Notes under the pieces: model-generated
Databases searched by the model: none
Told to the model about the DNA's origin: nothing
What the model saw: only the letters and a program-made list of their open reading frames with translations
Position numbers and translations under genes: made by a program
DNA from: a virus
Taxonomy: Duplodnaviria; Caudoviricetes
Length of the DNA: 60,489 nucleotides
IMG/VR virus record: IMGVR_UViG_3300037336_000242
Location: 1 to 60,489 of that record
Strand: one strand, 5' to 3'
In this document: piece by piece, positions 1 through 44,335 of the stretch
Numbering within the stretch: the first letter of the stretch is position 1
How the letters are laid out: each line of letters opens with the position of its first letter

Positions 1-507
1 AGCACAGCGCACCTATCGAAAATACGAACAAAAACTAGGCATTGCCCAGCGTGCCAAACAAAAACAACGGGTTAAATCCATCCATGCGAAAATTAAAAAT
101 ATCAGAAATGACTTTCAGCACAAACTCAGCCGTCAGTTGGTCGATGACCACGCGGCGATATTCGTTGGCAATGTGAACGCGAAAGGTCTGGCAAAAACCA
201 AACTGGCAAAGTCAGTGTTGGATGCAGGCTGGACGAGGTTCCGAACCATGCTCAAGTACAAAAGCCAGCAGGCGGGTGTATGGTTTGAAGAAGTCAACGA
301 AGCGTATACCACCCAGACGTGTTCGTGTTGTGGCTCACGCCAAAACAGTCCGAAAGGTAGAGCAGGACTTGGAATAAGAGAATGGACTTGTCAGGGTTGC
401 GGTACAACCCATGATCGCGACGTGAACGCCGCAAAAAACATTCTCGCGGCAGGACATTGCCGTCTAGCTGTAGGAATCCTCGTCCTTTAGGTCGAGGAGG
501 ATGTCAA
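1..507 (+). mobile_element. IS200/IS605-family element, right part ending at RE hairpin + TCAA
   Basis: tnpB followed by subterminal hairpin CCTCGTCC-TTTA-GGTCGAGG then AGGATGTCAA (478-507); TCAA is a typical IS200/IS605 right-end cleavage tetramer. Confidence 0.88.
2..490 (+). CDS. tnpB: TnpB RNA-guided endonuclease of an IS200/IS605 element (5' end outside window)
   Basis: Frame open from window start (AQRTYRKYEQKL...DFQHKLSRQL); C-terminal YTTQTCSCCG...WTCQGCG zinc ribbon and RuvC-III HDRDVNAAKNI. Confidence 0.93.
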   Translation, partial: AQRTYRKYEQKLGIAQRAKQKQRVKSIHAKIKNIRNDFQHKLSRQLVDDHAAIFVGNVNAKGLAKTKLAKSVLDAGWTRFRTMLKYKSQQAGVWFEEVNEAYTTQTCSCCGSRQNSPKGRAGLGIREWTCQGCGTTHDRDVNAAKNILAAGHCRLAVGILVL

Positions 508-682
508 TAGGCTGGAATCCCATAAACTCATAGGCGGGCGCGTTTGAGCCTTCTTTTTGTGGCGTGTTCTTTTGTGAATTTAACGCACGAAAGACAACCA
601 AGCACGCATCAAGCGCGTCGATTGGGTCGCCCTCGATGTCAATTGTGCTCAGCCCTGCAATCGCGCTCTGTAAATCGGACAT
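508..682 (-). pseudogene. 5' part of a late (probably head-associated) gene interrupted by the IS
   Basis: Starts MSDLQSAIAGLSTIDIEGDPIDALDACL, same tag as in the 1710-aa protein; preceded by late promoter motif; reading frame runs into the IS right end. Confidence 0.65.
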
Positions 683-760: not shown

Positions 761-1045
761 CTACCAGCCCGCTTCATGGCGGTGCAGCTCAAGTACAATA
801 TCGAATGGCGGCATGATTTTAATGCCGCTCCATTCTGGTTGGCCGTACCGCACAAATTCTAACGGATCGCACGAATCGACCGACAACATACGGCCATCTT
901 CACCAACAACCTGCGACAATACGTCTTTAATGTGCGCTATACCATGCTGCGCACCCTCTAGGCGCATGCCGCTAGAATCTTCATCAAAGTACACTTCTAC
1001 GCCGCCAAAGGGCGTAAGCACACGGTACACATCATCGTCTATCAC
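761..1045 (-). CDS. hxr: Hxr-like small protein
   Basis: Overlaps ddrB-like stop as hxr follows ddrB in P1; YRVLTPFGGVEV...GEDGRMLSVDS resembles recalled P1 Hxr. Confidence 0.5.
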   Translation of the reverse strand: MIDDDVYRVLTPFGGVEVYFDEDSSGMRLEGAQHGIAHIKDVLSQVVGEDGRMLSVDSCDPLEFVRYGQPEWSGIKIMPPFDIVLELHRHEAGW

Positions 1046-4000
1046 TGTATTTTCTCCAGATGTCTAAAAACAAACTCAATGTTGCTTTCATTAGGCTTGC
1101 CCAGTGTGTAAGAGCCTTCCTTAACCACCGTTCTTGCAAGTTCAACGAATGCAGCCTCCGCATTATCAAAACCCGCCCCAGCAATAGCGTAATTAAATTC
1201 ACGACTGTGTACAACCAAAAAGCCCTTACCAACACGCTTGGTTTTTCGATTGCGCACCTTTGCTGAAAACAAACTAACGCCCTTATAGCCACCCATGTAT
1301 GACATATCAGGGTGACGTTTTTGATTGGCAGCCAAGCCCCCACTTGCGGCGGCGGCATCGTCAGTCAACCTCACAACCTCGGTTATTTTTTTCATCATCT
1401 TTGTTAGTCGCCCTATTTCTTCCTTTTTGACTTGCAGCACGTCATCAACTGTTTTTGTCGCCAATGCCTCAATGACGACTGCAAGCGGGTGTTTTGGTGC
1501 GGCAATGCCGCCTTTGATCATAGCAAACATTTGCGGGTCTTGGCCGATACGCTGCGCCAAAACGCTAGGCATGGCAAAAGACTCTAAACCCATACTCCAA
1601 ACCTCGGTTGTTTTGTCAGCGTAATACTTGCCCACATACGGATTAAAGAAATTACCCTTGTAGGCGAGTTCGCTTTTATCGTAACCAGAGTCTAATGAAA
1701 GGTCTTCTAGGCGGTGCAATTTATCTGATTCGCGCTTGGCTTCTAAAAACCCGTTGGACGCAGCCAATGCCGCCTTGTCAGATTCCATATGATGCCCCAT
1801 TTCGTGAAACAGTATCTGTTTGTCAAAGTCAGAACCAAGCTGCAAAGTCTTGCTGCTGACGCGATTTTGCGACTCTGTTGTGTAGGCGCGACGGTTGCCG
1901 CTGACGTAGTCCAGCGCAACGTGCGAAATACGCCCGTTGGTTAGCGCATACAGTTCAGCAAGGTCTTTGCGCACCTGATCAATGGGATACTTTAATTTTT
2001 TAAGATGTTTTGCAGCATCGTCACTAATTGGCTGCTGTTCAGCCCAGCCCTTTGCTGTTGTCGCATCAACCGCTGTAGCCTGCATCAGGCCATCCAAAAA
2101 GACTTGTCCGTGTGTTGCTAACTGCTCTGCCATCCTATCTTTTTCTTTCCGATAATCATCTTCAAGTGGCTGTTTAAACTTCTTCCAAGTAATCTTTTCC
2201 AGTATCTTGTATTCAGCATACAGCTTTTCCGAAAGGGCTATATCCTCTGGCGTTGACGGATTTATAGCTTTGTATTGCCTGACGATCAAATTCACACGCT
2301 CAACGTGCTCACGCCAACCCGCATCTGCCCGGCCTTTTAGTGCTACTGCGGCTTGCTTGATACCCTCCTCATATCTCACTGCATCATCGTACAGCGCGTT
2401 GCCAATCTCATGAGTGTCTTTTCCGCGTTCTTCATAATCAGCATATGTAAGCCCGTTCACCTTGGTTTCATCAAGACTGTTGGGGGTCGAAAAATAAGCA
2501 AATTCTTCTAATTCATCCAGTCCTTTGTTGCTGTAGCCTGCCTTTGCCATAAGCGTCAACATTTCCTTGAAATAACCAAGGGTCTGTGCTTTTTGAGCCG
2601 CCGAGCTGCCAGCGGCAACTGTATTAAGTACTTTTTTAGCATAACTCAAGGTTGCAGCGTGGTTAGTCGGATTAATCACGGTCGGTCGGCCAAGTTCCGC
2701 TAGGCATACATCCAGCACGCCCAATGGGTCATTCTGAATGTCTTGATTGGTCATCGTGTCGAGTTCGCTGGCGATAGAATCAAAGCCGTCTAGCGACTTC
2801 ACGACATTTACGGGTATTAAGCCCGTCCCATTGGCTGTCATGCCCAAGATAAACCGCTGCCCATCTTTGATTGTTTTACGGTCCTTGCCTTTACGTTTCC
2901 ATTCATCCATCGTGATCGTCTTATGGTCAGGATTGATAGCTGTTTTTTTTGCAGCTTTGGCGACACCTTCTTTTTTGATCTGAGATGCTTTAGTAGGCAC
3001 ATCAAACCCCTTACTTTTTAGGTGACTTATAAGTCCTTCTACCGTGTATGGCGTTTTGCGGTAGATTGATTCGAGTTTTATCGGGTCCCAGCCGCCGCCA
3101 ATTGTTAAACTAGAAGGTAAGCCATCTCGACTAAACCCGATGCTTTTAACAATATCTCCAGCAAATTTCATCGGCAAAACACCGTCAAGCAAGCCCCATA
3201 ACTGCATGGCTGCTTTGTCCATATCGGCATCCCGTGCGGCTTGGTTGCTATCTGCTTCACGTTGTCGCTGTTCGGGGTTCATTGCAGCCCGCACGGCGTA
3301 ATATATCTGTTCCGTAGCGAAACCAGACATCCATTTGTAGATAGGTGCGGTTGTTTTTTCATATGCGCTATCTCGGCGCTCCACTTGTTTTATATTTAAT
3401 TTAGACCAACCCGCGATATGACCAGAATACACACCGCTCGCCGCCGACATTACGGATTTGATCTTCTGTATATACTCTGCCATCAGTTCTGCTTTGGCTT
3501 GATCAAAAGCGGCTTGTTGCTCTGAGTTCTCAACATGCGGCATTGCTTTGGCTTCGGCAGCTCTAATGGTTTCTATATAATTGGTATGTGCCTGTTTTGC
3601 ATATTGTCCTGTTTGTCGATACATACCCGAAAACGCCTTTGCAAAGTCGCTTTCTGGGAATGGGATTAAATCCTCTGGGGTTTGTAGTTTTTTTTGCACA
3701 ACACTTTGCGCTGGCTCAAAGTCGCCAGTATCCGCTCTAGTGGCATTCACTGCATCAGCAATAATACCTTTCAGCTCGGAATCATTAGATAGAAGCGAAT
3801 AGAAATAATCGGGTTTTTTTGCTTTTTCAGCCTCATTTACAATCACATTTATGACTGAATTATTATTGATCCAGATATCAGCAATCGTATCAATGCCGTT
3901 TCCCCTGTTTGCAGCCTGCTCAAACATATCTTTATTGGCTAGTAACATCTCCTTCAACTTGCCTACAAGATGCGTCCGCTCATTCCCTGCGCTCAACACC

Positions 4001-6150
4001 CCCAAACACGCCTCCAGCACGCCCAATGGGTCATTCTGAATGTCTTGATTGGTGATTGTTTCAAAATCACCAATCATGCTATCAAACATCACTTTCTTGG
4101 TCGCTTTCTGAACCACCGCATCTTCAATTTCAGCCATTAGAACCAGTGGGTCGATTGTCCCCCTGTAAACATTCAGCACGCGCTTAATCACGGGGTCGCT
4201 GTAGCCCTCCACCGTGTGCAAGATGATCGCAGGTAGTGTGTCTTCATCGGCATCTAAAGCCATTTCGTACCGCTTAACGCCTGCAATCAGCAGCAGGTCG
4301 CCTAAGCGATTCTGTTGCAGCAGTAGCGGGGTTTTGGCGGTCGGTTGGCGTTCGCGGCTACCATTGGCGAATGGGTGAATTTTAACGTCATCTAGGTGGA
4401 CGTGCTCAAGTATGCCGTCCGCTAGGAATGAGTCGAATAGCGTACCATTGGCGGCATAGCTTGCAGCACCCCTGCCAAGCCCAAACAACCTCAAAAGTAT
4501 CTGCATTGCATCGTCTGCCGCCGCCTCGCTATTGAAAGAAAGATAAGATTCAACACCCCTAAGATTATCGCTTACTAACATGCCAGAAGGCTCGTCGTAA
4601 TTATCATCACCAAGTGCGTACAGTTGGCTCGACAGGTCGCTAATCTCACCTTCTGACAAGCCGCTCGCAGCGATTAACTCCTCCATCTCCGCATCATTAA
4701 ACCTATCCACCCCGATTACGATTAGACGATCATACCAGCCTATCGGAAATTCCCGCATCGAGTCAGGGTAAGCCTTTTGCAGCTTGCCTGAGCCTTTTTG
4801 CGCAGCAGATACACTATTGATTGGTTCGCTGGACATATCGCCAACACCAGCAGCGCTTTCTCTGCCTTTGCGTTGAGCCGCCAAAGCCGTTAAAAAGCCA
4901 TCATCTTGAGGGGCTTTTTTTGGTGATTTTGTGCTGATTGGCTTAATTAGGCGATTGCGGAACTCAAGCGTAAAATTAGGATCAGACGGCTTCACCGTAT
5001 GCAACACCATATCTAGCTCGTTATAGCAAACCAGACTTCCATCATCAGCCTGATAGACGCGCATGTCCTCATCATCATAAAGATACCCGACACCCATATT
5101 TGCACCACGAAGCGGCATTAACTGCTTCTTTGATATATTATTTATCAGCCAATCGCCTGCTTTGATTTTCGCGGCGGATCGCGCTTTTTTGCTTTCACTC
5201 GAATCATCTGAAGCTGTTGCCGAAAAATCTAAAATAATTCCAACATCGTCTGACTTATCGGATATTTCTGGCAGATCAGTAGGGCTGTAATTTGGGTCGA
5301 TTGCCGTTTTTACATTGTTTTCACGGCCTGCGGGGGTTATTTCAGCAGCCATTTCTTTGGTAGCCGCGTCTGCCATAACGCCTTTAGACCATTGTACAAA
5401 TTCATCTCTAGCAGGCTGCATTTCGACCGCGCCCACAAGGTCATCGCCTGTAGCCTTGCTAGATACATATTTAAACTCAGATCGTCTGCTTGAGACATCA
5501 ATGGCGGCAGATTTAAAAATGTAATGTTCAGTCTCAATATACGGTGCAACAGAAACCAACTTATCGCCATTTTTGCTTAGATAAAACCGACCACTATCAA
5601 TAAGCGACTGCATACCCGCGCTAAGTTCGCGCACAGGCGTAGCATTTGCCTGTTCGGCTTGTCGCTTGGGTTTGTGCATTTTCTGCTTTGCAATATCTGC
5701 AAGTAATTTGTGCGCCAAATTAGACGCATACGCTTGTAATTCAGCAGCAGTGGCATCTTCGATCCCAAATTTTTCGGCATTTGACGGTGACGCCTTTAGC
5801 TTTTCAAACACAAAGCCGCCCGATGATTCAGAAATATACCAGCTTGTACCGCTTAAACCAGTCCTTGATCCGTTTAATAAATCAATGCTTTGTCGCAAGC
5901 TGCTAGATTCGTCTAACAAGCCAACGTCATCTCGCATGTAATATCGACCGTCTTTTTTATCCCAATAGTTAATCAGCCCCAACTCTTTCCATGTGAGTAT
6001 TTCGATCTTCGTGGGCCGCACTGCGCGTAGTTGGTCGGCATCGTCATCAGACGCTATTAAGCTCCGCAACGCCCCCAAGCACACATCCAGCACGCCTAAC
6101 GGATCTCGCTCAATATCGGAATCTGTTACCGCTTGAATTGCCTTATCCAT
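1042..6150 (-). CDS. ddrB: DdrB-like polyvalent head/injected protein with C-terminal zincin metallopeptidase
   Basis: LFHEMGHHME (HExxH) plus YVGKYY...TEVWSMGLE; ParB-like segment TPLLLQQNRLGDLLLIAGVKRY; synteny darA-ddrA-ddrB-hxr; start MDKAI at 6150 preferred because the promoter -10 is at 6185-6190. Confidence 0.7.
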   Translation of the reverse strand: MDKAIQAVTDSDIERDPLGVLDVCLGALRSLIASDDDADQLRAVRPTKIEILTWKELGLINYWDKKDGRYYMRDDVGLLDESSSLRQSIDLLNGSRTGLSGTSWYISESSGGFVFEKLKASPSNAEKFGIEDATAAELQAYASNLAHKLLADIAKQKMHKPKRQAEQANATPVRELSAGMQSLIDSGRFYLSKNGDKLVSVAPYIETEHYIFKSAAIDVSSRRSEFKYVSSKATGDDLVGAVEMQPARDEFVQWSKGVMADAATKEMAAEITPAGRENNVKTAIDPNYSPTDLPEISDKSDDVGIILDFSATASDDSSESKKARSAAKIKAGDWLINNISKKQLMPLRGANMGVGYLYDDEDMRVYQADDGSLVCYNELDMVLHTVKPSDPNFTLEFRNRLIKPISTKSPKKAPQDDGFLTALAAQRKGRESAAGVGDMSSEPINSVSAAQKGSGKLQKAYPDSMREFPIGWYDRLIVIGVDRFNDAEMEELIAASGLSEGEISDLSSQLYALGDDNYDEPSGMLVSDNLRGVESYLSFNSEAAADDAMQILLRLFGLGRGAASYAANGTLFDSFLADGILEHVHLDDVKIHPFANGSRERQPTAKTPLLLQQNRLGDLLLIAGVKRYEMALDADEDTLPAIILHTVEGYSDPVIKRVLNVYRGTIDPLVLMAEIEDAVVQKATKKVMFDSMIGDFETITNQDIQNDPLGVLEACLGVLSAGNERTHLVGKLKEMLLANKDMFEQAANRGNGIDTIADIWINNNSVINVIVNEAEKAKKPDYFYSLLSNDSELKGIIADAVNATRADTGDFEPAQSVVQKKLQTPEDLIPFPESDFAKAFSGMYRQTGQYAKQAHTNYIETIRAAEAKAMPHVENSEQQAAFDQAKAELMAEYIQKIKSVMSAASGVYSGHIAGWSKLNIKQVERRDSAYEKTTAPIYKWMSGFATEQIYYAVRAAMNPEQRQREADSNQAARDADMDKAAMQLWGLLDGVLPMKFAGDIVKSIGFSRDGLPSSLTIGGGWDPIKLESIYRKTPYTVEGLISHLKSKGFDVPTKASQIKKEGVAKAAKKTAINPDHKTITMDEWKRKGKDRKTIKDGQRFILGMTANGTGLIPVNVVKSLDGFDSIASELDTMTNQDIQNDPLGVLDVCLAELGRPTVINPTNHAATLSYAKKVLNTVAAGSSAAQKAQTLGYFKEMLTLMAKAGYSNKGLDELEEFAYFSTPNSLDETKVNGLTYADYEERGKDTHEIGNALYDDAVRYEEGIKQAAVALKGRADAGWREHVERVNLIVRQYKAINPSTPEDIALSEKLYAEYKILEKITWKKFKQPLEDDYRKEKDRMAEQLATHGQVFLDGLMQATAVDATTAKGWAEQQPISDDAAKHLKKLKYPIDQVRKDLAELYALTNGRISHVALDYVSGNRRAYTTESQNRVSSKTLQLGSDFDKQILFHEMGHHMESDKAALAASNGFLEAKRESDKLHRLEDLSLDSGYDKSELAYKGNFFNPYVGKYYADKTTEVWSMGLESFAMPSVLAQRIGQDPQMFAMIKGGIAAPKHPLAVVIEALATKTVDDVLQVKKEEIGRLTKMMKKITEVVRLTDDAAAASGGLAANQKRHPDMSYMGGYKGVSLFSAKVRNRKTKRVGKGFLVVHSREFNYAIAGAGFDNAEAAFVELARTVVKEGSYTLGKPNESNIEFVFRHLEKIQ
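2711..4053. repeat. 41-bp identical direct repeat (2711-2751 and 4013-4053) encoding TNQDIQNDPLGVL; diverged copy near 6085-6120
   Basis: TCCAGCACGCCCAATGGGTCATTCTGAATGTCTTGATTGGT read at both positions. Confidence 0.9.
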
Positions 6151-6184
6151 CACTAAAAAACCAAAATAGCCCACGATTGGGGCT

Positions 6185-6226
6185 ATCTTGTTGGATATGG
6201 CGGACTGTTTTTGGTTTGGTTCCGTT
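6185..6226 (-). promoter_or_regulatory. Putative late promoter AACGGAACC-N27-CAAGAT
   Basis: Conserved bipartite motif upstream of ddrB-like gene. Confidence 0.7.
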
Positions 6227-6560
6227 AGGCTGCCATACCCCTCACAGCTTCGACAATCACGCGCACCACTGGCCGCAACTGTGGATGATCAAGGTCTTTT
6301 TGGCCTTCGGCTTTGACCTGCTCAATAAGCTGCTCAGTCACCGGTTCGCCATCGAGTACCGACTGGTATAGCGGGTTGGTCGGGGCTGGTTGTGGCTCAG
6401 TATTGCCACCACTATCGCCACCTAGCAGATCAATCACCTCAAGCATACGATCCACAGCTTTCATTTCATCGCGGCGTGACAGCTCACCACCACTCAGACT
6501 TTCAACAATTGCCACGCCTTCATCGACAAGGCGCATTAGTTCACGACGATTCATGCTCAT
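6225..6560 (-). CDS. ddrA: DdrA-like protein
   Basis: 111 aa, two helical halves with Gly linker, located between darA-like and ddrB-like genes as in P1. Confidence 0.55.
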   Translation of the reverse strand: MSMNRRELMRLVDEGVAIVESLSGGELSRRDEMKAVDRMLEVIDLLGGDSGGNTEPQPAPTNPLYQSVLDGEPVTEQLIEQVKAEGQKDLDHPQLRPVVRVIVEAVRGMAA

Positions 6561-6566
6561 ATCCCC

Positions 6567-9458
6567 TTATGCCGCTGCTTGCATGGCTTTTTTGGCCGCT
6601 GCTTTAACCAAGTCGAATGCTTGACCGACCAAATCATCTAATTCAGCGTTCGGGTTGGCTTCGAGTTCGGCATCCATGCGCTTCAATTCAGCTTGTACCG
6701 CCTTAATATCCGCTAGGGTTGCCAGTGGCGTTGCACCGCTAATAACGCTGTTTAGGTAGTCGGCATCGGGGCTTGTCGCTGGTACGTCTGGCTCTACCGC
6801 AGCAGGTACGGGCTGTGATAGACCTTTCACATAATCAACACCTGCTTTCGGCAAGTACATCAACCTGTTTGTAGGGGAAACCAAACTATCGACTAATTTG
6901 TAAAAACTAAAACCCAGCGGGGTATTATGCGGGCTTGTTTTTATCAGGGCGCGTAGTTCAATTAGTCGAATAGTGTCGGGGTGTTGCTTGTTACCAATAG
7001 GCGCTGACCGCTGCAACGACTCGTACTCTCTTGTAGTCGCATTGTTTTTGGCTGTATCAGGGCGCGTTAGCTCCTCTAATACCCAACCATCAGCCAATCT
7101 TTGATCAATAAGCTGTTTGTTTGTTGGTGCGCCGTCTTCATCGCTAGACTTGGCGCTTAGGTACTTCGTTTGACGCGCATCTTTTAATACATCCCCCTTT
7201 GAAGGCGCTACCACATCGGAATCATCCCCAATCAAGACCCCACTAGCACTAAACCCGCGATCAAAAAGCCATTTCGCCGCGCCCGATTTAGTTGTGAATT
7301 CTCTAAACTCAGTCGCTGTTGCCGCCATGATTTTACCATTACGCTGCAATGTACCGCTGCTTGTCTCGCCGTTGTAGCCGTCTTGCTGAATCTCCAGAAA
7401 AGGTGCAACTGCTTTTTGTGTATTGCCGCGTGCTTTTTCAGTATCAACCACACCTTGCATCTCTAAAAACTCAGCTTCTGTGCAACCTCGCCACTCAAGA
7501 ATACCGCTGACAATTTCCCGTTTACTTTTTCCAGCAATCTTCGTTGTGCCGGTGTAAGCGTCAAACACTTTACGGCTGATTTTGTTATCCGCGTCGGAAA
7601 AATAAGGCATGTGTTCTACCAATCCAGAATCGGTCTCCTCCATCGCCTTGATTCTTTCAATCATTAGGACCGTGTATCTAAATGATTGATCGTCGTTAGA
7701 GTGATCTAATGAGCTGGCTGATGCGATTGCAACACCCATCGCTTTTTTGAACTTTTCAACATCCATGCCTGCTGGGATTCTATCAATCCAGCTAGTGGTT
7801 TTTGCATCGGGCTGTGGCGCAATGGTTTTATTTGGGGCAATTAAATCACCTGTCATTGGGTTGGTACTCCAACCAGCGTTCAAAAGATCAATCAGTTTCT
7901 CGACCTTCTTTTCGCTCGAAATAACATAGCCACCTTGCACCCGCGACCATCGCCCGTTAATGCCTTTGGCTTCACATAATTGATTAATGCGAGTTCTTCC
8001 ACCGCCTTTACGTCTGTCAGATACGATCAAAACACCCTTAGCGTTGCGTTGCGGCTTGGTAATAACGTAGTTAATCGTTTGTCCATCGTACTCTTTGTAC
8101 TGCCCGTTATACGGCTTTTCATCACCAGCATTCCAGTCGTCAGCTTCGGCTTGTGTAACATCGTCAGACTCAGTCGCGGCGGGTGCGGGTCGGCTGTTTG
8201 CGGCATAGTGCTGCTCCGCTTCTTCACGGGTTGCAAACGACGCAATGCCCTCTGGTCGTACCGACAAAAACGGATATTTACCACCATCCTCAGAATCCCA
8301 CACGCCAGAGTAGCCCATAGGCGGCTTTTTGGATTGAACCACCGGCTTATCCAACTCAGCTTGCAGCACCACCATTTCAGCATCCAATCCCGCAATCGTC
8401 GCGCTGTGCTGTTCGATACGCCCGCTGACCTCGGTCAATTCCTGCGCGTTTTCGGCCTTTTTCGCATTGGTGCGGGTAAAGCGTGCGCTGTTTTGGTTTA
8501 CCAGCTTCATTATGCGAATAGCCAACACTGGCAACTGCACATCTTCACCTTGATTCGGCTGCACCGCCGCCGATACATCGCGGGCATTCAGTAGGATTTT
8601 CCAGCTAATCAGCGTATCGCCCGGCAGTAATTTTGACGGCGTAGAATCGGGATTGTGGAAAACAATAGAAACCGACTGACCATCTGAAACCTCAAAAATC
8701 GCGGCCACCTGCGTGACTTTATTGCGCTTGAAAGGCTCAGACTGGCGGTAGTTGCTGATCGTCAAGCCCCCGCCGGCGGCAGCATCCATAGCCTCAGACA
8801 AGAGTTGCATCAGCTTGTCCAGACGACGGTTTTCTACGATGATCGCATCGTAGCCCATCATTTCAGCACCAAGCCACTCAAGCATCGCGGGCATATCATC
8901 GGCTTTCATCGCATCGAATAGCTGCGAATCATCGTCATGTTTAACCAGATCAAGTAGTAGAGTAGCCGTGCTGCCACCGTGTGACTTTAGATTGATACCG
9001 TCCCACATCGCGGGTTGCATCGTGGTGACATCCTGCAAGGCCAGCAGGTTTTTGCTGTATACCGGCAAGTTATCGCGTGGATTTAGTTTTTCGCTGTTTA
9101 GATAGCGCATCAAACCTTTTCCATTCGACTCAGTAACCGCCTGCACTTCACAGCTATCAAAAAACCGCCCGTATTGGCTCTGTACCCACTCGACCGCCTG
9201 ATCAGCGTCTAACGCGCCAATGACCGCTACAGCGTCGAATAACGCGCCTGTAGCACCCTTAGACTTCAAGTTGACCACTTGCCATAGATCGGCATCGGTA
9301 GCCGTAGGCGATAGCAGGGCGTCGATCATGCGGCATTGGCCGACAATATGCCCAACTGCTAGATTTGAATAGATGTTATCGAAGCCTGGCACGCGGCGGC
9401 TAGTGCGTGGGGCGTGGGCTTGCACAAAAATGCTTGTGTTGGACACGGTTTTTTCCAA
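6567..9458 (-). CDS. darA: DarA-like defence-against-restriction head protein
   Basis: SDGQSVSIVFHNPD...DTLISWKILLNARDVSAAVQP...KLVNQNSARF matches recalled P1 DarA core. Confidence 0.8.
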   Translation of the reverse strand: MEKTVSNTSIFVQAHAPRTSRRVPGFDNIYSNLAVGHIVGQCRMIDALLSPTATDADLWQVVNLKSKGATGALFDAVAVIGALDADQAVEWVQSQYGRFFDSCEVQAVTESNGKGLMRYLNSEKLNPRDNLPVYSKNLLALQDVTTMQPAMWDGINLKSHGGSTATLLLDLVKHDDDSQLFDAMKADDMPAMLEWLGAEMMGYDAIIVENRRLDKLMQLLSEAMDAAAGGGLTISNYRQSEPFKRNKVTQVAAIFEVSDGQSVSIVFHNPDSTPSKLLPGDTLISWKILLNARDVSAAVQPNQGEDVQLPVLAIRIMKLVNQNSARFTRTNAKKAENAQELTEVSGRIEQHSATIAGLDAEMVVLQAELDKPVVQSKKPPMGYSGVWDSEDGGKYPFLSVRPEGIASFATREEAEQHYAANSRPAPAATESDDVTQAEADDWNAGDEKPYNGQYKEYDGQTINYVITKPQRNAKGVLIVSDRRKGGGRTRINQLCEAKGINGRWSRVQGGYVISSEKKVEKLIDLLNAGWSTNPMTGDLIAPNKTIAPQPDAKTTSWIDRIPAGMDVEKFKKAMGVAIASASSLDHSNDDQSFRYTVLMIERIKAMEETDSGLVEHMPYFSDADNKISRKVFDAYTGTTKIAGKSKREIVSGILEWRGCTEAEFLEMQGVVDTEKARGNTQKAVAPFLEIQQDGYNGETSSGTLQRNGKIMAATATEFREFTTKSGAAKWLFDRGFSASGVLIGDDSDVVAPSKGDVLKDARQTKYLSAKSSDEDGAPTNKQLIDQRLADGWVLEELTRPDTAKNNATTREYESLQRSAPIGNKQHPDTIRLIELRALIKTSPHNTPLGFSFYKLVDSLVSPTNRLMYLPKAGVDYVKGLSQPVPAAVEPDVPATSPDADYLNSVISGATPLATLADIKAVQAELKRMDAELEANPNAELDDLVGQAFDLVKAAAKKAMQAAA

Positions 9459-10514: not shown

Positions 10515-10774
10515 ATATCTCGGATTCGGGATTGGTCAAGCCAAACAACAACACCCTAGCTTCAAAGCTTAGTATCCCGTCACGCGGGATTGGTCGGAGC
10601 GTATGCTTTGCCCGTTCAGCAACATGATGGTATCCCGTCACACGCTGGATTATTCGATGATGATCTGGCTGGACTACCACCAAGATTCAGCATCTCGGAT
10701 TCGGGATTGGTCGGAATCACTGCCAAATGATTGGGGCAGCAAGACTGCATCCCGTAACACATGGGATTGGACTA
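10515..10774 (+). CRISPR. Leaderless degenerate CRISPR array: 5 repeats (25-28 nt), 4 spacers of exactly 32 nt
   Basis: Repeats at 10515 ATATCTCGGATTCGGGATTGGTCAA, 10572 GTATCCCGTCACGCGGGATTGGTCGG, 10630 GTATCCCGTCACACGCTGGATTATTCGA, 10690 GCATCTCGGATTCGGGATTGGTCGG, 10747 GCATCCCGTAACACATGGGATTGGACTA. Confidence 0.88.
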
Positions 10775-10793
10775 GGTTTTACAAGGCACCGAC

Positions 10794-10994
10794 ATGGCAA
10801 TGACCAACAGAGAAAAGCAAGCCGCCTACCGCAAGCGAAACGCGGGGCTGATTGTAAAGGCGGTAATCACGCCACAGGCAAAAGAAGCACTTGATCGATT
10901 GGTTGCGGTTGAACCTACGCAATCACAAGGGCAAGTGATCAGTGAAGCATTGATACAGTTTAAGGACGGGAAAGATGAAAATGACACCGTTTAA
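10794..10994 (+). CDS. Small DNA-binding protein (ribbon-helix-helix-like), candidate cassette regulator
   Basis: MTNREKQAAYRKR basic helix then VKAVITPQAKEALDRL...SQGQVISEAL strand-helix-helix pattern; overlaps csf3 start. Confidence 0.6.
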   Translation: MAMTNREKQAAYRKRNAGLIVKAVITPQAKEALDRLVAVEPTQSQGQVISEALIQFKDGKDENDTV

Positions 10995-11619
10995 AGTCAC
11001 CTGCCACGTCGCCACCCCAATGCAGCTAGGCAGCCACCCGCTGCACCTAGACGGCTTGCTGTACTGGTTGGCTATCGAGCATCAAGCTGATGCACAAGAC
11101 GTGCTAGACGTTTGCCTAGACCAACAGGCGGGTATCTATAAAGCAAGCGCCTTGTGCTTTGCCCCACAGCCGCTAGAAATCGTCACCACCCGCGCCGCGT
11201 CGCATCCAACCTGCTGGAAATGGAATGAGTTTAGCCTGCCAACAAGCGCAAAAACCATTGTGCAAAAAGGTGGGCCGTACCGGTCGAGAATGACCAGCTA
11301 CACTGCCTACCAATGCAGCCAAGTCGTGTTTTTTGGCGTAGGCGATATGACCAAGATTCAGGCGTTACTGTCCACATGCAATGGTCTAGGTCGCAACAGC
11401 AACCAAGGTTGGGGCGAAATAACCGCGATTGAAATCGAGCCGATGGATCAGGATTGTTCGTGGTTTATGGATGATCAGATCATGCGGACGCTACCGCTGG
11501 ACTTAATCCCAAGCAACACAGATACAAGCCACGCGCTGCAAGGACTGGCAAGCATTGCACCGCCTTACACCACCACCGCCAAACAAGCCACACAATCCCC
11601 CGTTTTTCTAAAGGTATAA
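10975..11619 (+). CDS. csf3: Type IV CRISPR Csf3 (Cas5 group)
   Basis: PFKVTCHVATP...LHLDGLL N-terminus, Gly-rich GLGRNSNQGWG loop, MRTLP. Confidence 0.88.
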   Translation: MKMTPFKVTCHVATPMQLGSHPLHLDGLLYWLAIEHQADAQDVLDVCLDQQAGIYKASALCFAPQPLEIVTTRAASHPTCWKWNEFSLPTSAKTIVQKGGPYRSRMTSYTAYQCSQVVFFGVGDMTKIQALLSTCNGLGRNSNQGWGEITAIEIEPMDQDCSWFMDDQIMRTLPLDLIPSNTDTSHALQGLASIAPPYTTTAKQATQSPVFLKV

Positions 11620-11623
11620 CGCT

Positions 11624-12610
11624 ATGAAAACAATCTTTTTCGCTGGCAAAATCAAAACCGTATCACCGGTTGCCGTGACCGTTCCCGATACCGTCGGCAT
11701 GCCAAAAGATAGCGCCGGTAACGCCTATCTGCCTGCAAATAGCATCCGTGGCAAGTTGCGCCACAGCCTGCATGAAGCAATCGCACGCCATTATGCAGAT
11801 CAAGGCAAGCCGCTTACAGTCGATCAGCATTACATGCTTGGTAGTGGCGTAGACACAGCACGCGCACTGAAAGATACCAGCAGCAACATCGGTGCAAATA
11901 CCGCACGCCGCGCCGCCAATCCAGTATTGTCGGTTTTTGGCAATTGGGGCTTGGCTGGCAAGTTAGGCGTGGGCAGCGGCTACACTGGCACAAAGGCGGT
12001 TATTCACGGCGCGGGCGTTCGTAAGCACGTCGGCAAGGAGTGGCTAGATCAAATAATCGACCTATCGGAAATCGACTACTTAACCGAAATCCTAAGCCAA
12101 GACGGGCAAACCAGCCAAGACTCGCAACCGATCAAAGACCGCCAAAAACTGCTCAAGCGTGAACTGAAAGGCGCGGACGCTACCCGCAAAACCGAAATCA
12201 ATACTGAGCTGGCAGACCTTGATCAGCAGCTACGCGAACTCAAAGACTTGCGCACTGGGGCAAGCGAAAGCATCCAACGCCCGCTAGAAGGTTTTGAGGT
12301 GATCGACCACGGCACAACCATGCCGCACCGCATGATCTTAAAGAACCCAACAGACACCGAGCTACACACGGTGTTACTGAGCATTGCAGCGTGGGCGTAT
12401 GAGCCGATGATTGGTGGGCATCACAATCTTGGGTGCGGCAATATCGACGCAGAATGGGAAATCTACGAACAAGCATTTTTGTCGAATGCGCGTACCAAAA
12501 TTGGCACGGTCGGATTTAATGAAACGGGCTTTTTTGTCGAAGGCATTGTGTTTGATGCAGCGGCAACACTGCAACACATCACCACTGATTTTGACTTGGC
12601 ACAGGTATAA
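11624..12610 (+). CDS. csf2: Type IV CRISPR Csf2 (Cas7 group)
   Basis: YLPANSIRGKLRH, RAANPVLSVFG, LAGKLGVG, MIGGHHNLGCG. Confidence 0.92.
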   Translation: MKTIFFAGKIKTVSPVAVTVPDTVGMPKDSAGNAYLPANSIRGKLRHSLHEAIARHYADQGKPLTVDQHYMLGSGVDTARALKDTSSNIGANTARRAANPVLSVFGNWGLAGKLGVGSGYTGTKAVIHGAGVRKHVGKEWLDQIIDLSEIDYLTEILSQDGQTSQDSQPIKDRQKLLKRELKGADATRKTEINTELADLDQQLRELKDLRTGASESIQRPLEGFEVIDHGTTMPHRMILKNPTDTELHTVLLSIAAWAYEPMIGGHHNLGCGNIDAEWEIYEQAFLSNARTKIGTVGFNETGFFVEGIVFDAAATLQHITTDFDLAQV

Positions 12611-12612
12611 CC

Positions 12613-13359
12613 ATGAATGCCATCTTAGGCGCACGGCTTCGCGCAACTTTCGCGCCTGAAATGGCGAATGAAGCCCCACAAGATTGTAATTCAGACTGTG
12701 AAAACTGCGGGCGTAAGCCGTCGGAATATGGCGGCGTGGCGTATGTCAGCACGGACAGCTACAAGCGGCAATTGGCACACTGTCCCGATTGCCGACCGAT
12801 CAGCATTCAAGCCCCACAGACGCTAGGGATTGCGATTGAACCCGCTACGGGCTTTACCCTTGCCACATTCAAAGGCGGTTACTTGGTTGTCCCTGCGACT
12901 GACAAGCCATCACTACTTGTATCTGGCAAGTACCCTGCCAAAATCCACCAACACGCGGTTGACGTGGTGCCGCTTGGTGGACACGCTGCTAAAGCATGGT
13001 TATTCAGCAATCACCAAGCCGATAGCTATGTGTTAGAGCTATCGCCACGGCGTGAACGGTTTAGCCGCCATGCCATGCCATGTGACCATAATCACTTGGT
13101 GATTGCCACTACAAGCGGCGCGGCAAAAATCAGCCTATCTGACTGGCAAAATAGCCGTGACGCGCTACGCGGCATCGCCAAATACAAAGACGTGATCAGC
13201 TTGGCGCGTGGACTCACAGAGGGGCGCTTGCACTTGTCCAGCGACAAGGTACAAGCGGCATTAACACCCGAAATCATGGCGGTTTTATCCGCACTACCTA
13301 AAGACCCCATTTCGCGCTGTTTCGTGTTAGACGCGCTCAGTGGCTTGGAGGCTGTATGA
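12613..13359 (+). CDS. csf1: Type IV Csf1 (Cas8-like large subunit)
   Basis: 248 aa with N-terminal CENC...CPDC zinc finger, located between csf2 and cas6. Confidence 0.65.
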   Translation: MNAILGARLRATFAPEMANEAPQDCNSDCENCGRKPSEYGGVAYVSTDSYKRQLAHCPDCRPISIQAPQTLGIAIEPATGFTLATFKGGYLVVPATDKPSLLVSGKYPAKIHQHAVDVVPLGGHAAKAWLFSNHQADSYVLELSPRRERFSRHAMPCDHNHLVIATTSGAAKISLSDWQNSRDALRGIAKYKDVISLARGLTEGRLHLSSDKVQAALTPEIMAVLSALPKDPISRCFVLDALSGLEAV

Positions 13360-13886
13360 ATCACTTATTTGCACTAAAGCCGCACAATGAAGCGCACAAG
13401 GCGGTTATGGCTGTTTTGCACAAGACAGGGCAAGACTGGAAAACCAAAGGCACGCGCAAAATTCAGTTTGCCAATCTTGGCAGCCTGATCTTGGTTCGCA
13501 CCAATCAGCAGCCAACAGGCATCCCGTGCAAAGCAGATGCGCCGGTATTCAGCACAGGCCAACGCCTAACGCTACAGGTCATCCTACCCGCACAAAAACG
13601 GGCGCGGGACTACCGCACAGCACCCGCAATCCGCACACAGTCAGAAATGAATGATCTTGCATCGGCATTGCTTGCTGAAAATGGCTTGTCTGTGGATAGC
13701 ATCGAGGGCAAGCCAGCACATTCTGCTTTTTTCAAAAAAGACGGTCGGACAACGGTTATTGCTGCAATGCACTTTGTCGCCACCGCCACCGTTACCGACC
13801 CGCAAGCCCTTGCGATTGCCTATACCCAAGGCGTCGGCCGCGAGAAATCGTTAGGGTTTGGCATGCTCATTGTGAAGGAGGTTTGA
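13356..13886 (+). CDS. cas6: Cas6 (Cas6e/Csf5-like) crRNA-processing endoribonuclease
   Basis: C-terminal VTDPQALAIAYTQGVGREKSLGFGML G-rich loop. Confidence 0.88.
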   Translation: MNHLFALKPHNEAHKAVMAVLHKTGQDWKTKGTRKIQFANLGSLILVRTNQQPTGIPCKADAPVFSTGQRLTLQVILPAQKRARDYRTAPAIRTQSEMNDLASALLAENGLSVDSIEGKPAHSAFFKKDGRTTVIAAMHFVATATVTDPQALAIAYTQGVGREKSLGFGMLIVKEV

Positions 13887-13888
13887 TT

Positions 13889-15796: not shown

Positions 15797-15911
15797 TCGC
15801 CTTTAACGCACTGTTTTTGCTTTGCTTTTTTTGGGTCACTGAAAATTGGGTTAAATGCTGAATTTAGCCGATACTCTTTAAAAATCAGATGGTTTTGGTT
15901 GGATGGTTACA
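15797..15911 (+). promoter_or_regulatory. CRISPR leader with IHF-like site
   Basis: AT-rich 115 bp containing CTCTTTAAAAATCAGATGGTTT, resembling WATCARNNNNTT of type I-E/I-F leaders. Confidence 0.65.
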
Positions 15912-16299
15912 GTATCCCGTCAGGTGCGGGATTTAGCGGAAAACATACGCCCGCAAACTGGCAAACAAGGCGTATCCCGTCAGGTGCGGGATTTAGCGGA
16001 AAAGTGACTTGATTGTCACTGTTACCCTTTTGTATCCCGTCAGGTGCGGGATTTAGCGGAGTGTTAAGGCGTTACAAGACCAACGACTCTAGTATCCCGT
16101 CAGGTGCGGGATTTAGCGGTTGTCGAAGCATTCAGGTTGCCAGAGTGCAAAGTATCCCGTCAGGTGCGGGATTTAGCGGAACTGGTAGATTTGGTCGGGT
16201 TCGATCGGTTGGTATCCCGTTAGGTACGGGATTGGTCGGTCTTGTCCTTCACCAAGTCGAGCGTAACCCGCGTATCCCGTCGTGTACGGGATTGGTTGC
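15912..16299 (+). CRISPR. CRISPR array: 7 repeats of 28 nt, 6 spacers of 32 nt
   Basis: GTATCCCGTCAGGTGCGGGATTTAGCGG identical at 15912, 15972, 16032, 16092, 16152; variants at 16212 and 16272; exact 60-nt period. Confidence 0.98.
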
Positions 16300-16302
16300 C
16301 GC

Positions 16303-30125: not shown

Positions 30126-31886
30126 TTAGCCCACCACTGGCAAGTTAATCATATTGATCACTGCAATCTGATCTGCAAAGCGACTGAGCGGATTAAACTT
30201 GGCGGCGAACCGACCAAAGATGCCCACGTTCTCATTAAACGCGCTTGGATTGGCGGTGCGAACCATTGGCGGAACTGGCATATGACCAACAAACGTAGCT
30301 TTAGCAGCTTCACCGCCACGCGCCACGATCATGATCTGAGAGCTGGTATCGGTTTCAGTCAATACCCGCGCACTGTCTGGCACATAATAGACGTTTGTGC
30401 CCTCTGACAAGCGACCCATACGCACGATCTGCGTATGAATGCCGATCTGTGCGCCAGTCTGAACAAACATATCGCCAGACATGGTGCAAAACAGATGCGC
30501 GGCGCGGTCAGTCACGAATAGATCGAACTCAGTAGCCGACGCGCCCACGGTTTTGTTAATGTCAGTTTTGGCTTTTTTGATTACTTTCAAGACTTCAGCA
30601 ATCAGATCGCCAGTCTTGTTGTAAGCGGCTGCCAAGTTGCCAGTAACGCCACGCGACGCATCAAACGTCAAGATACGGCCATTCTGAATGGCGCGACGCT
30701 TGCCTTTTGCCAGTAACCGCTGATTCTGGCCGATATAGAACATTTGCTGAATCATCGCCAACTGACCACCGATAACGCCGACCCCCATTTCGTTAGCAAG
30801 CTGAGTAACCACGTCAATCGTCGCGGTAAGCGAAGAACGCCAAGGCGCGGCGAAGACGCGGGCATACTCAGCGTGCATATCCACGCCAGGCGGGCGAATC
30901 ACCGGATTGCCGCTGCCATCTACGCGCTCATAATCCAGCACGAATTCGACGGTCACCTGATCGTTTACGCCAAGCGCAACACTGAATGTCACGGCTACAG
31001 CATGCGTATCTAAGTTTACTGTCCCCGATACCGTACCGCCATTTGGCAGAACCACGCCGCTGACCATCGTCAGCGAATGCGTACCGCTTTGGCGTGAATT
31101 TGAACGTGCATAGTCGTCGGCAACTTCGACGCCGTTTACCGACACAACCACTTGACCACCAAGGAATGGAGCAGCGGCTACGTCTGGGGTCATTGCATCA
31201 TAGTCGAGATAAGACGCGCTACAAGTGACGGTATAGGCCAACTGGTTAGCCGTAGCCATCACAAACTCAAGACGGTTTTCAACATACGGCAGCATGGATT
31301 TTTCGCCATCCAAAAAATCACCAGCGCTTAACGCGCCGTGTTTTTTGTTGGCGGTATGCCGCAAGTAAACCAATGGCACGACATTTGAGCCAATAGGATT
31401 AGAGAGCATGGCGACCATTGGCAGACTGTTTGCAATCGCAGTTGCGATAGTGACAACGGTCATTGCAGGGACAATCGACGTTGCTTCATGCCCACCGTTG
31501 GTCACGTCATCGAATCCAGCAATGCCGTTAAAATTATCGGCTGAATGCTTTTGAAACAACGATGCAGCCGCACCAAGCGCAAAGCCCACAGCAGACGCGG
31601 TGGGCTTTTCGCCGTGGTGTTTTTCGTACTGCTGAATGCCTAGCGATACGCCTTGTGCGATTGCGTCTTTTGCTTCGACGTCACCCATGCTGTCAAACAT
31701 GGCATGTAGCACGCCGTTTGAGCTGATATGATCAGCAAAGCCCAAGCTATCATCTTCGCCGATAATGCCGTCAAACATCGCGCCTTGATCAGCCTTGCCT
31801 GCAACTAGAATCTGAGCGGCCAATGCCGTCAATTTCTTAGAATGCGCGTGCGCGGTCTGTAAGTCTTTGTCCATTTCTACACTCAT
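30126..31886 (-). CDS. Major capsid protein (P1 gp23-like) with N-terminal propeptide
   Basis: About 590 aa, own late promoter, P1-type inserted beta domain (VSGTVNLDTHAVAVTFS), MGRLSEGTNVYYVP; start 31886 or 31874. Confidence 0.8.
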   Translation of the reverse strand: MSVEMDKDLQTAHAHSKKLTALAAQILVAGKADQGAMFDGIIGEDDSLGFADHISSNGVLHAMFDSMGDVEAKDAIAQGVSLGIQQYEKHHGEKPTASAVGFALGAAASLFQKHSADNFNGIAGFDDVTNGGHEATSIVPAMTVVTIATAIANSLPMVAMLSNPIGSNVVPLVYLRHTANKKHGALSAGDFLDGEKSMLPYVENRLEFVMATANQLAYTVTCSASYLDYDAMTPDVAAAPFLGGQVVVSVNGVEVADDYARSNSRQSGTHSLTMVSGVVLPNGGTVSGTVNLDTHAVAVTFSVALGVNDQVTVEFVLDYERVDGSGNPVIRPPGVDMHAEYARVFAAPWRSSLTATIDVVTQLANEMGVGVIGGQLAMIQQMFYIGQNQRLLAKGKRRAIQNGRILTFDASRGVTGNLAAAYNKTGDLIAEVLKVIKKAKTDINKTVGASATEFDLFVTDRAAHLFCTMSGDMFVQTGAQIGIHTQIVRMGRLSEGTNVYYVPDSARVLTETDTSSQIMIVARGGEAAKATFVGHMPVPPMVRTANPSAFNENVGIFGRFAAKFNPLSRFADQIAVINMINLPVVG

Positions 31887-31927
31887 GGGTTGCACCTTTG
31901 CCGTTGATTGGCTGTTTCGATGCAACA

Positions 31928-31970
31928 AGGGTGTGATAGGACTGCTTACTAGGCTTTTATAGGTTCCAAT
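31928..31970 (-). promoter_or_regulatory. Putative late promoter ATTGGAACC-N28-CACCCT
   Basis: Conserved motif upstream of capsid gene. Confidence 0.65.
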
Positions 31971-43423: not shown

Positions 43424-44335
43424 TTAACGCCCCAACCAGTTACCACGGCCAACATCGGCCAATGATTCACCAATGGCTTTTTTGCGGTCGATAACGTCCT
43501 TAGTGAGAAATGATTCAGCATCGCGTAGCACGTCATCAAATGATCGGGTCACGCCTGCAATATCGTCATAACCAGCGGCTTCACGCTTGCGGCGGGTTTC
43601 GGCATACCGCGCTTGTTTATCAATCAGGCGTTGGTTTTCCTGTAGCAATTCGCCAATCTGGTCATAGGCTTGGGCGTTTTGTTGCGACATTTGCACACAA
43701 GCATGGATGCTGTCATACATGCTCAAAACTTGCTGATCAAGCGCTTGGGCAAGCATGATCTGTGCTAAATCCATGCCCTCAAAATCGGTCATGCTGTCAA
43801 ACATTGGCACGCCGTCGATAGGCTCGCACGGTAGCAGCAAGCCGTCGAATAATTGGCCGTCGCCTACGTTGGTTGCATAGTTAGGCTGCATCACATAGTC
43901 GAAGCCGTAAAAGCCTGTTACCGCTAGTTTATTGCCCACGGCGCGGTAGTGCTGTGCTGTGCTGAATCCGCCCGTTTTGGATAGGTATTGGCGGCGTGCA
44001 AACTCGCCTGAATCGTTGTCGAGAAATTCCTCGACGTGATCGACTGTTCCGTCTGACTTGGCTGATATTTCGAGTGTGCGGATAGCAGGTTCTAGCTTAA
44101 TCGCCTTACCATCAATAAAAGCGGTTTCAGGCGGTTGCATGCCGAACCGTTGGCGCACTTGGTGCCCGTAGTAACCCAACAGGCTACCCGTGCTGACCAT
44201 TTCTTGAGTTGCCGCGCCGTTAATTTGCGCCACCATCGACCCAATATCTACATTTGAGCGGTCTTGCCCTGTGGCTTTGCGGCCACGGTCGGACAGGTTG
44301 TAGGTTAGCTTTTTGGTTTTGCGTGATTGGCTCAT
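43424..44335 (-). CDS. pro: Prohead processing protease (P1 Pro-like)
   Basis: LLGYYGH, GGFS, GFDYVMQPNY match recalled P1 Pro. Confidence 0.85.
   Translation of the reverse strand: MSQSRKTKKLTYNLSDRGRKATGQDRSNVDIGSMVAQINGAATQEMVSTGSLLGYYGHQVRQRFGMQPPETAFIDGKAIKLEPAIRTLEISAKSDGTVDHVEEFLDNDSGEFARRQYLSKTGGFSTAQHYRAVGNKLAVTGFYGFDYVMQPNYATNVGDGQLFDGLLLPCEPIDGVPMFDSMTDFEGMDLAQIMLAQALDQQVLSMYDSIHACVQMSQQNAQAYDQIGELLQENQRLIDKQARYAETRRKREAAGYDDIAGVTRSFDDVLRDAESFLTKDVIDRKKAIGESLADVGRGNWLGR

Follow-up and report, generated by a model that had tools for sequence, protein, structure and literature searches.

The described system nearest to the locus analysed here is the Dar (defence against restriction) system of bacteriophage P1, with the gene order hdf-darA-ddrA-ddrB. 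The locus lies in a stretch of 60,489 bases (below, the window) that constitutes an entire IMG/VR virus record, with an estimated completeness of ~70%. Its source is an uncultured P1-like myophage, in whose Dar head-protein operon the open reading frame (ORF) at 1042..6174, on the minus strand, takes the ddrB position. The product is a polyprotein that, judging from its sequence, is probably a polyvalent cargo precursor of four modules with FD|S junctions, packaged under the guidance of a repeated tag, cut by the prohead protease Pro, and rearranged by recombination at the cassette borders.

In P1, the cut in the capsid protein has been mapped to E120|S121 (PMC9024508), where the sequence reads AMLE|SV. 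The cryo-electron microscopy model of P1 DarA begins at residue 70, and the authors suggest that Pro removes residues 1-69 (PMC12810830); the sequence at that position is DLLE69|A. Pro, which processes both of these proteins, has an HHpred match to T4 gp21 (5JBL, 99.44) (PMC9024508 supplement). P1 DarB carries an N-terminal targeting signal, and its first 30 residues suffice to bring a reporter into capsids (PMC9024508). The window is like P1 in its order of DarA, DdrA and DdrB-position genes (followed downstream by DarB and Ulx in the related locus L011), its DarA_N domain, an Hdf-like gene, and a homologous C-terminal zincin. It is unlike P1 in that the P1 proteins have no recognisable shared tag, the P1 motif is (L/M)(L/F)E|S rather than FD|S, and P1 DdrB has two modules compared with four in the window polyprotein, whose copy is without ddrB-ParB. 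The tag has no sequence similarity to the P1 DarB signal.

Polyvalent proteins (PMC5512222) also carry several conflict domains per polypeptide (metallopeptidase (MPTase), ddrB-ParB, ART-PolyVal, InPase, LPD1, LPD3), are encoded beside virion genes, and are predicted to be packaged and processed. They differ in that MPTase autoproteolysis is proposed for them; the available portions of that paper describe no junction motif or repeated tag, and the words 'linker' and 'shuffl' do not occur there. The internal proteins of T4 are directed into the procapsid by a short N-terminal signal and are cut by a gp21-type protease after an acidic residue preceded by hydrophobic residues. However, the T4 signal is clipped after packaging, whereas here the predicted cut precedes the tag, which would stay; the residue at the P1 position of the cleavage site is Asp instead of Glu, and the cargo takes the form of a polyprotein. 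In the giant phages phiKZ and SPN3US, the prohead protease processes many of the internal or ejected head proteins at a short consensus, but no repeated tag or cassette polyprotein is described in the portions available (PMC7411985, PMC10052503). Polymorphic toxin loci likewise have conserved borders that allow in-frame exchange of variable modules, but the border here encodes a candidate protease site and targeting tag, and the modules would be virion cargo. The window thus appears to combine known kinds of element, namely the Dar system, polyvalent proteins, capsid-targeting signals and head-protease processing. Full-text literature searches turned up only the P1 papers and that of Iyer et al. 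(PMC5512222).

Modules and tags of the polyprotein

The gene, its predicted modules and its three tags are:

1042..6174, minus strand: cargo polyprotein gene in the ddrB position; 1710 aa from GTG, or 1702 aa from the likelier ATG at 6150
4429..6150, minus strand: module 1, tag plus uncharacterised sequence, 574 aa, ending in TLFDS
4078..4428, minus strand: module 2, mini ParB-like, 117 aa, without tag, FDS on either side
2776..4077, minus strand: module 3, tag plus uncharacterised sequence, 434 aa, with 41-nt identical repeats at both flanks; missing from the relative P0002
1045..2775, minus strand: module 4, tag plus zincin metallopeptidase, with HEMGHH at 1789-1806
6076..6117, minus strand: N-terminal tag, DIERDPLGVLDVCL, profile score 73 bits
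4003..4044, minus strand: internal tag 1, 12 residues past VMFD|S
2701..2742, minus strand: internal tag 2, 12 residues past DGFD|S

The ATG at 6150 is the likelier start because related proteins begin MDIQAV. This anatomy can be observed directly: the tag, D[IV]xxDP[LI]xxL[DE]xCL, occurs at aa 20, 711 and 1145 of the polyprotein, FDS at aa 580, 697 and 1131, and HEMGHH at aa 1457. The original prediction had recognised one tag at the N-terminus and two internal copies, each behind an FDS and sharing 41 identical bp, and all of this was found again. The FDS at aa 580 had gone unlisted, and the protein had been expected to yield three pieces, all headed by the same tag. Four pieces are predicted instead, since a 117 aa ParB-like piece follows the FDS at aa 580, and this piece is untagged.

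The two internal tags lie in a DNA repeat (2711-2760 and 4013-4062) with 94% identity over 50 nt, inside which is an exact 41-nt core (4013-4053 = 2711-2751). The repeats start 1302 nt apart, or 434 codons, and are in frame. Identical codons are used in the core for 13/13 identical residues, which has a chance of ~2.5e-6 under the codon usage of the gene itself; the N-terminal tag has only 7/13 and 6/14 codons in common with the two internal copies. A profile made from four tags, run over all six frames of the window, matched only the polyprotein ORF and a 72 aa ORF at 464..682 (the scan covered 2771 stop-to-stop frames of the window and related loci). The repetition of the tag in the window is real and far beyond chance.

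The 72 aa ORF, which opens with the variant tag DIEGDPIDALDACL, had been taken for a separate gene with a fourth copy of the tag. It lies at the end of the contig next to a transposon-derived sequence:

464..682, minus strand: darB-like 5' stub; similarity to full-length DarB-like proteins ends at ~35 codons
2..490, plus strand: IS605-family TnpB fragment; runs off the contig and interrupts or ends the darB-like gene

Similarity of its product to full-length DarB-like proteins covers their first 34-35 residues and is lost afterwards, with IS605-family sequence beyond; the ORF is therefore a truncated darB-like gene rather than a small gene. The presence of the tag was correct but its assignment to a separate gene was not.

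The spacing between the presumed cut and each internal tag equals, within one residue, that between the initiator Met and the N-terminal tag. The next FD site is 419-559 aa past each tag and none occurs within 400 aa, so that by sequence the tag stays on the predicted mature pieces and is not clipped by the FD-cutting protease in the manner of a T4-type signal. Internal translation starts at the junctions were considered and ruled out: the codon after FDS is ATG at one junction and ATC at the other, and encodes L, V or I in relatives.

The zincin of module 4 has its homologue in the C-terminal part of P1 DdrB (blastp, 30% identity over 153 aa, E 6e-9), and the HExxH signature of the P1 protein is present in the window polyprotein. 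Designation of the protein as 'DdrB-like' is therefore apt in its gene position and C-terminal zincin but not in the defining ddrB-ParB domain (PF18763), which was not found in the window polyprotein (Pfam, 0 families) and is present in the polyproteins of relatives. Those polyproteins include InPase, ART-PolyVal, LPD1, LPD3, RelE and ddrB-ParB domains. As is typical of polyvalent proteins, the window product unites a zincin, a ParB-like module and two uncharacterised modules in one polypeptide, with a DarA_N gene adjoining. The last 290 aa of module 1 show 59% identity to P0002, a protein equivalent to the window polyprotein minus module 3 and minus the first half of module 1. Module 2 matches ParB_N at E 0.09, which is below the cut-off, and copies of it are 66-72% identical in 8 relatives.

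Part of module 3 (aa 886-1091, window 2902-3519, minus strand) has 24-28% identity to large Pseudomonas podophage virion proteins, whose annotations read PLxRFG domain, structural or internal virion protein. The polyprotein has one more motif, AGFD|NA, 41 residues short of its C-terminus (aa 1667-1671, window 1166-1180, minus strand). The AlphaFold2 model of module 4 had a pLDDT (predicted local distance difference test score) of 52, unusable for a structure search, while that of module 3 (pLDDT 66.6) found no Foldseek match in the PDB at E<=1e-3. Modules 1 and 3 had no usable match in the ESM Atlas. The polyprotein gene gave no megablast match among 50,697 phage records, and the polyprotein and the capsid protein, scanned singly against viral contigs, gave no confirmed match.

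Junction motif and head protease

The motif (hydrophobic)-F-D|small joins the polyprotein modules at three junctions and recurs in three other products of the window:

30126..31928, minus strand: major capsid protein, 600 aa; AMFD|G (52), AMFD|S (78), AGFD|D (139)
43424..44335, minus strand: Pro homologue (T4 gp21-type prohead protease); LFD|G (163), MFD|S (179), SFD|D (266)
6567..9458, minus strand: DarA-like internal head protein, 963 aa; FD sites at aa 26 (FD|N), 74 (FD|A) and 100 (FD|S)

As observed, the distribution of this motif is uneven. Across 66 chosen ORFs, FD[SGD] was counted 24 times, where composition would predict 7.6. When a preceding hydrophobic residue, Gly or Ser was required, there were 19 occurrences in 74 non-overlapping ORFs (19159 aa), and 10 of the 19 fell in the polyprotein, capsid protein, Pro and DarA-like protein (3576 aa), four test proteins picked by analogy to P1 (Fisher p = 9e-4; 0/5000 shuffles reached 10). 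The three capsid sites are all confined to residues 52-141 of 600, and a cut at the last of them, GFD|D, would leave ~460 aa compared with 448 aa in mature P1 gp23.

The sites are retained in related phages. Ahead of the same hydrophobic N-arm, the capsid protein of G001 and G002, two related genomes (50% identity), shows KFDS, MFDS and NGFDD. In that of Acinetobacter phage ABMM1, at 40% identity, the sites are GFDS, IFDS and GFDD, with GFDD again ahead of this N-arm, and in that of Xanthomonas phage Rb1, at 28% identity, they are TFDS, IFDG and AMDS. In the DarA-like proteins of G001 and ABMM1 (gp28), sites are again present near residues 22-26, 72-74 and 98-100. The presumed substrates of the prohead protease share the motif of the capsid propeptide of the same phage. 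A homologue of P1 gp21 ('baseplate or tail tube', window 26989-27795, minus strand) has four FD sites, at aa 18, 78, 164 and 179, and in P1 gp21 itself there are LME|S (29) and ILE|A (86); the window homologue may be another substrate of the head protease. A PDB sequence search with the Pro homologue gave chance matches only.

The FD junction motif stands where P1 has (L/M)(L/F)E|S. P1 Pro carries four such motifs (MLES, MFES, LLES and LFES), and in a global alignment VPMFDS of the window Pro falls on AGMFES of P1. P1 DdrB has a Pro-type motif, GGLFE441|S (aa 438-442), exactly at the end of its ParB module. Residues 8-428 of P1 DdrB are 40% identical, over 422 aligned columns, to the 453 aa ParB module of the relative P0004, and P1 LFE441|S and IGLFD|S/D of the relatives end this module within two residues of each other, the alignment stopping 13-15 residues before the two sites. 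The joint change from (L/F)E to FD in all presumed substrates is what a changed protease specificity predicts. Given the motif in the capsid propeptide, Pro and DarA-like protein, and its observed exchange with the P1 LE|S motif at homologous places, cleavage of the junctions by the head protease is likely, and we infer that Pro cuts after the Asp. This agrees with the resemblance of FDS to a head-protease site that had been pointed out originally. By the same reasoning, GGLFE|S at the end of the ParB module suggests that P1 DdrB may be cut by Pro rather than by its own zincin.

Distribution of the tag and exchange of modules

A profile search with the tag gave 16 proteins at E<=1e-3 among 1.84 billion representatives, 2/16 being low-complexity false matches (P0021 and P0022, with 18 and 21 stretches), and a word-based search gave 16 proteins at E<=1 among 1698 candidates. 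There was no confirmed copy in a scan of 185,579 species genomes, and a metagenome scan recovered only two loci, one of them duplicating G002. With so few matches in these searches, the tag is considered rare and clade-specific. Tag-bearing proteins fall in about 14 protein clusters, and the profile has 46 matches in 26 sequences, 18 of them N-terminal. Among the internal tags scoring >=25 bits, 24/25 lie 12 residues past FD[SGA] and the remaining one is past YDS; three weaker internal matches were dropped from this count, and the counts are not independent, since near-identical copies make up several of the rows.

The cargo observed behind the tag is diverse. It heads DarB-like methylase-helicases (P0010, P0013-17 and the G001 DarB), ddrB-ParB, ART-PolyVal, LPD3, zincin and module-3-like cargo; LPD3 cargo occurs also as a solo tagged protein (P0025, 303 aa), and there is a further solo tagged gene (P0024, 687 aa). 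A check of this kind with a tag profile had been suggested originally, and its expectation of diverse cargo was borne out for ParB-like, ART, LPD3, zincin and methylase-helicase proteins. InPase, RelE-like and small modules in the same polyproteins are without a tag of their own. The tag forms the N-terminus of both the DarB-like proteins and the polyprotein, the place expected in packaged proteins, and its position at the DarB-like N-terminus in this clade is the ground for proposing that it is a shared capsid-targeting or anchoring signal, by analogy with P1 DarB. ABMM1 gp29, a solo ddrB-ParB protein, opens with a diverged tag, and when aligned by MAFFT the tag coincides with the N-terminal helix of P1 DdrB, a homology of position only.

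Exchange of modules is best seen in two related loci, L011 (G001) and L012 (G002), which show 97-98% identity in shared DNA and encode mosaic polyproteins differing by whole modules:

G002 polyprotein: tag-ART (290 aa), tag-265, tag-ParB (453), mini ParB (117), tag-zincin (590)
G001 polyprotein: tag remnant with stop, 148, 7, tag-ParB (453), 113, 117, tag-zincin (593)

The module sizes of 453 and 117 are kept exactly between the two. Identity breaks directly past the tag core or at FD; at one such breakpoint there are 36/36 matches upstream, 46/48 in the core, and then 14/36 downstream. A third contig, L020, has yet another N-terminal part. Module 2 closes some proteins with a real stop (two different proteins have this same end), and in others it is joined to tag-zincin via KKxMFD[SG]. 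The observed breakpoints support shuffling of modules at tag or junction borders, as had been supposed for the cargo modules. L011 and L012 are, in addition, wholly different over the DdrA-like gene and the C-terminal half of the DarA-like gene (L011 5265-7231, L012 4253-6394).

From these data the following route can be proposed. The precursor, with its order of tag plus uncharacterised module, mini ParB-like module, tag plus uncharacterised module and tag plus zincin, separated by three (hydrophobic)-F-D|S junctions, would enter the procapsid through its tags. Each tag, of ~25 residues, is predicted to form a short helix followed by a Pro-capped amphipathic helix, PLGVLDxCLGxL. Pro, the gp21-type protease, would then cut after the Asp of every junction inside the procapsid, and would also trim the capsid propeptide, the DarA-like N-terminus and itself, releasing separate cargo proteins that retain their tags. 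Junction and tag would double as cassette borders, at which in-frame homologous recombination could add, remove or swap modules.

Several facts sit uneasily with cleavage by Pro, or with the tag as a targeting signal. FD sites are present too in a few non-head ORFs, and the stronger enrichment of an extended motif (A or N also allowed after D, hydrophobic next; 15/22 occurrences in the same four proteins, p 5e-7) comes from a definition made after the sites were seen. Older work cited by Iyer et al. reports a processed P1 DdrB of 76 kDa 'before packaging' (PMC5512222), and a cut at LFE441|S would give ~48 + 61 kDa instead. Iyer et al. themselves predict MPTase autoproteolysis of P1 DdrB (PMC5512222), and the junctions could correspondingly be cut by the C-terminal zincin of the polyprotein, before or after packaging or in the infected cell, with the head protease uninvolved. 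The window protein does end in an intact HEMGHH zincin, as do five tag-bearing polyproteins in all, but the same motif occurs in the capsid propeptide, Pro homologue and DarA-like N-terminus, whose P1 counterparts are Pro substrates, and all these proteins share the E to D change. In addition, 11 relatives with FD junctions have no HExGHH motif, so a zincin in cis is not needed, although one could be encoded elsewhere in those phages; self-cleavage is thus very unlikely to account for the junctions. Alternatively, the protein could be packaged and then injected without any cleavage, like a classic polyvalent protein, and FD, linker and tag could be a conserved interdomain linker or recombination scar left by fused tagged genes. 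The solo tagged genes P0025 and P0024, together with copies of module 2 that end in real stops, make such a fusion plausible, the internal tags are homogenised at the DNA level, and N4 virion RNA polymerase is packaged unprocessed (PMC5512222). What this leaves unexplained is why the linker should start with a motif enriched in the capsid propeptide and Pro, why that motif co-varies with the mapped cut of P1, and why untagged modules also have FD borders, and we regard an uncut protein as unlikely.

With regard to the tag, AlphaFold2 models of its region are of low confidence (pLDDT 55-64), and no match to it was found in P1 DarB, DdrB, DdrA, DarA, Ulx or Hdf; a common Dar targeting signal had been suspected by the P1 authors, who saw none by BLAST (PMC9024508). 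Module 2 and several modules of relatives are without a tag, and in G001 a stop codon cuts the N-terminal tag off the ORF, which restarts just after (L011 ~7495-7540); this stop, a scar of recombination, deprives the first module of a tag. A tag on each module is therefore not obligatory. The existence of untagged modules, the consideration that one packaging signal would be enough for a polyprotein, and the retention of the tag on mature pieces, where T4 removes its signal, would all fit a tag that serves another shared need of the cargo, such as tail ejection, enzyme inactivity, oligomerisation or DNA docking, the junctions still being cut by Pro. Its presence at the DarB-like N-terminus, where P1 DarB has a signal sufficient for packaging, and its positional homology to the N-terminal helix of P1 DdrB and ABMM1 gp29 argue for targeting, and such another role seems doubtful. 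A role of the tag as a docking site for the protease was ruled out: the sites in the capsid protein, Pro and the DarA-like protein lack a tag, and no site precedes the true N-terminal tags.

More tentatively, the combination of protease site, 12-residue spacer and capsid tag may be a selected cargo-loading 'grammar', in which a single procapsid receptor (possibly the DdrA-like or DarA-like protein) would accept any protein placed behind the tag, to be packaged, released by Pro and delivered, with the DNA of the tag kept uniform for in-frame swapping. The N-terminal helices of P1 DdrB and DarB would then be diverged versions of the same signal, which, if true, would answer the question of a common Dar targeting signal. 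The clade represented here carries a clearly conserved tag on its DarB-like protein and on its DdrB-position modules, making such a signal directly testable. Borders made of site plus tag would explain how polyvalent anti-defence proteins gain and lose domains, and swappable tagged modules point to a natural plug-and-play loading of anti-defence proteins into the capsid; site and tag together would offer a compact handle by which selected proteins could be loaded into phage heads. The E to D change at homologous sites would provide a specificity rule for P1-type head proteases.

The Dar operon and neighbouring genes

The operon of the window runs DarA-like, DdrA-like, polyprotein, a 94 aa ORF and the darB-like stub, and the polyprotein is directly downstream of the darA- and ddrA-like genes within the late head-protein operon, as is P1 DdrB. 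The gene order of the window and of L011 matches P1 darA-ddrA-ddrB, which places the polyprotein in the ddrB position. In L011 the order is portal, tube-like, DarA-like (962 aa), DdrA-like (118), polyprotein (1416), a 106 aa ORF, DarB-like (2158) and Ulx-like (153). Two small genes flank the polyprotein gene of the window:

6225..6560, minus strand: DdrA-like gene, 111 aa, in the ddrA position as in P1; C-terminal match to phrog_8883
761..1045, minus strand: 94 aa ORF, kept between polyprotein and darB in relatives

The DarA-like protein carries a DarA_N domain (Pfam, E 1.7e-31) and matches the DarA phrog over residues 5-371. The DdrA-like protein (111 aa) is 51% identical to its L011 counterpart. 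Other P1-type genes in the window are those for portal, tube, sheath, baseplate, an Hdf-like protein, terminase and the Pro homologue.

The counterpart of the 94 aa ORF in L011 is the 106 aa gene, also between polyprotein and darB, and the 94 aa product is similar to the N-terminus of a 2238 aa DarB-like protein of Xanthomonas phage Rb1. A motif of the type (Y/F)(L/Q)xSV(I/L)(D/S)G is common to the C-terminal half of the DdrA-like protein, the C-terminus of the DarA-like protein (window 6225-6560 and 6567-6800, minus strand) and the C-terminus of an internal head protein of Rb1. Between the darA-like gene and the tube and portal genes lies a complete type IV-A-like CRISPR-Cas system (window 10630-16300, plus strand) with genes for Csf3/Cas5, Csf2/Cas7, Csf1/Cas8, Cas6 and DinG. 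Its CRISPR array, at 15912-16296, consists of 7 repeats with a 60-nt period, and two degenerate repeat-like copies occur at 10630 and 10747.

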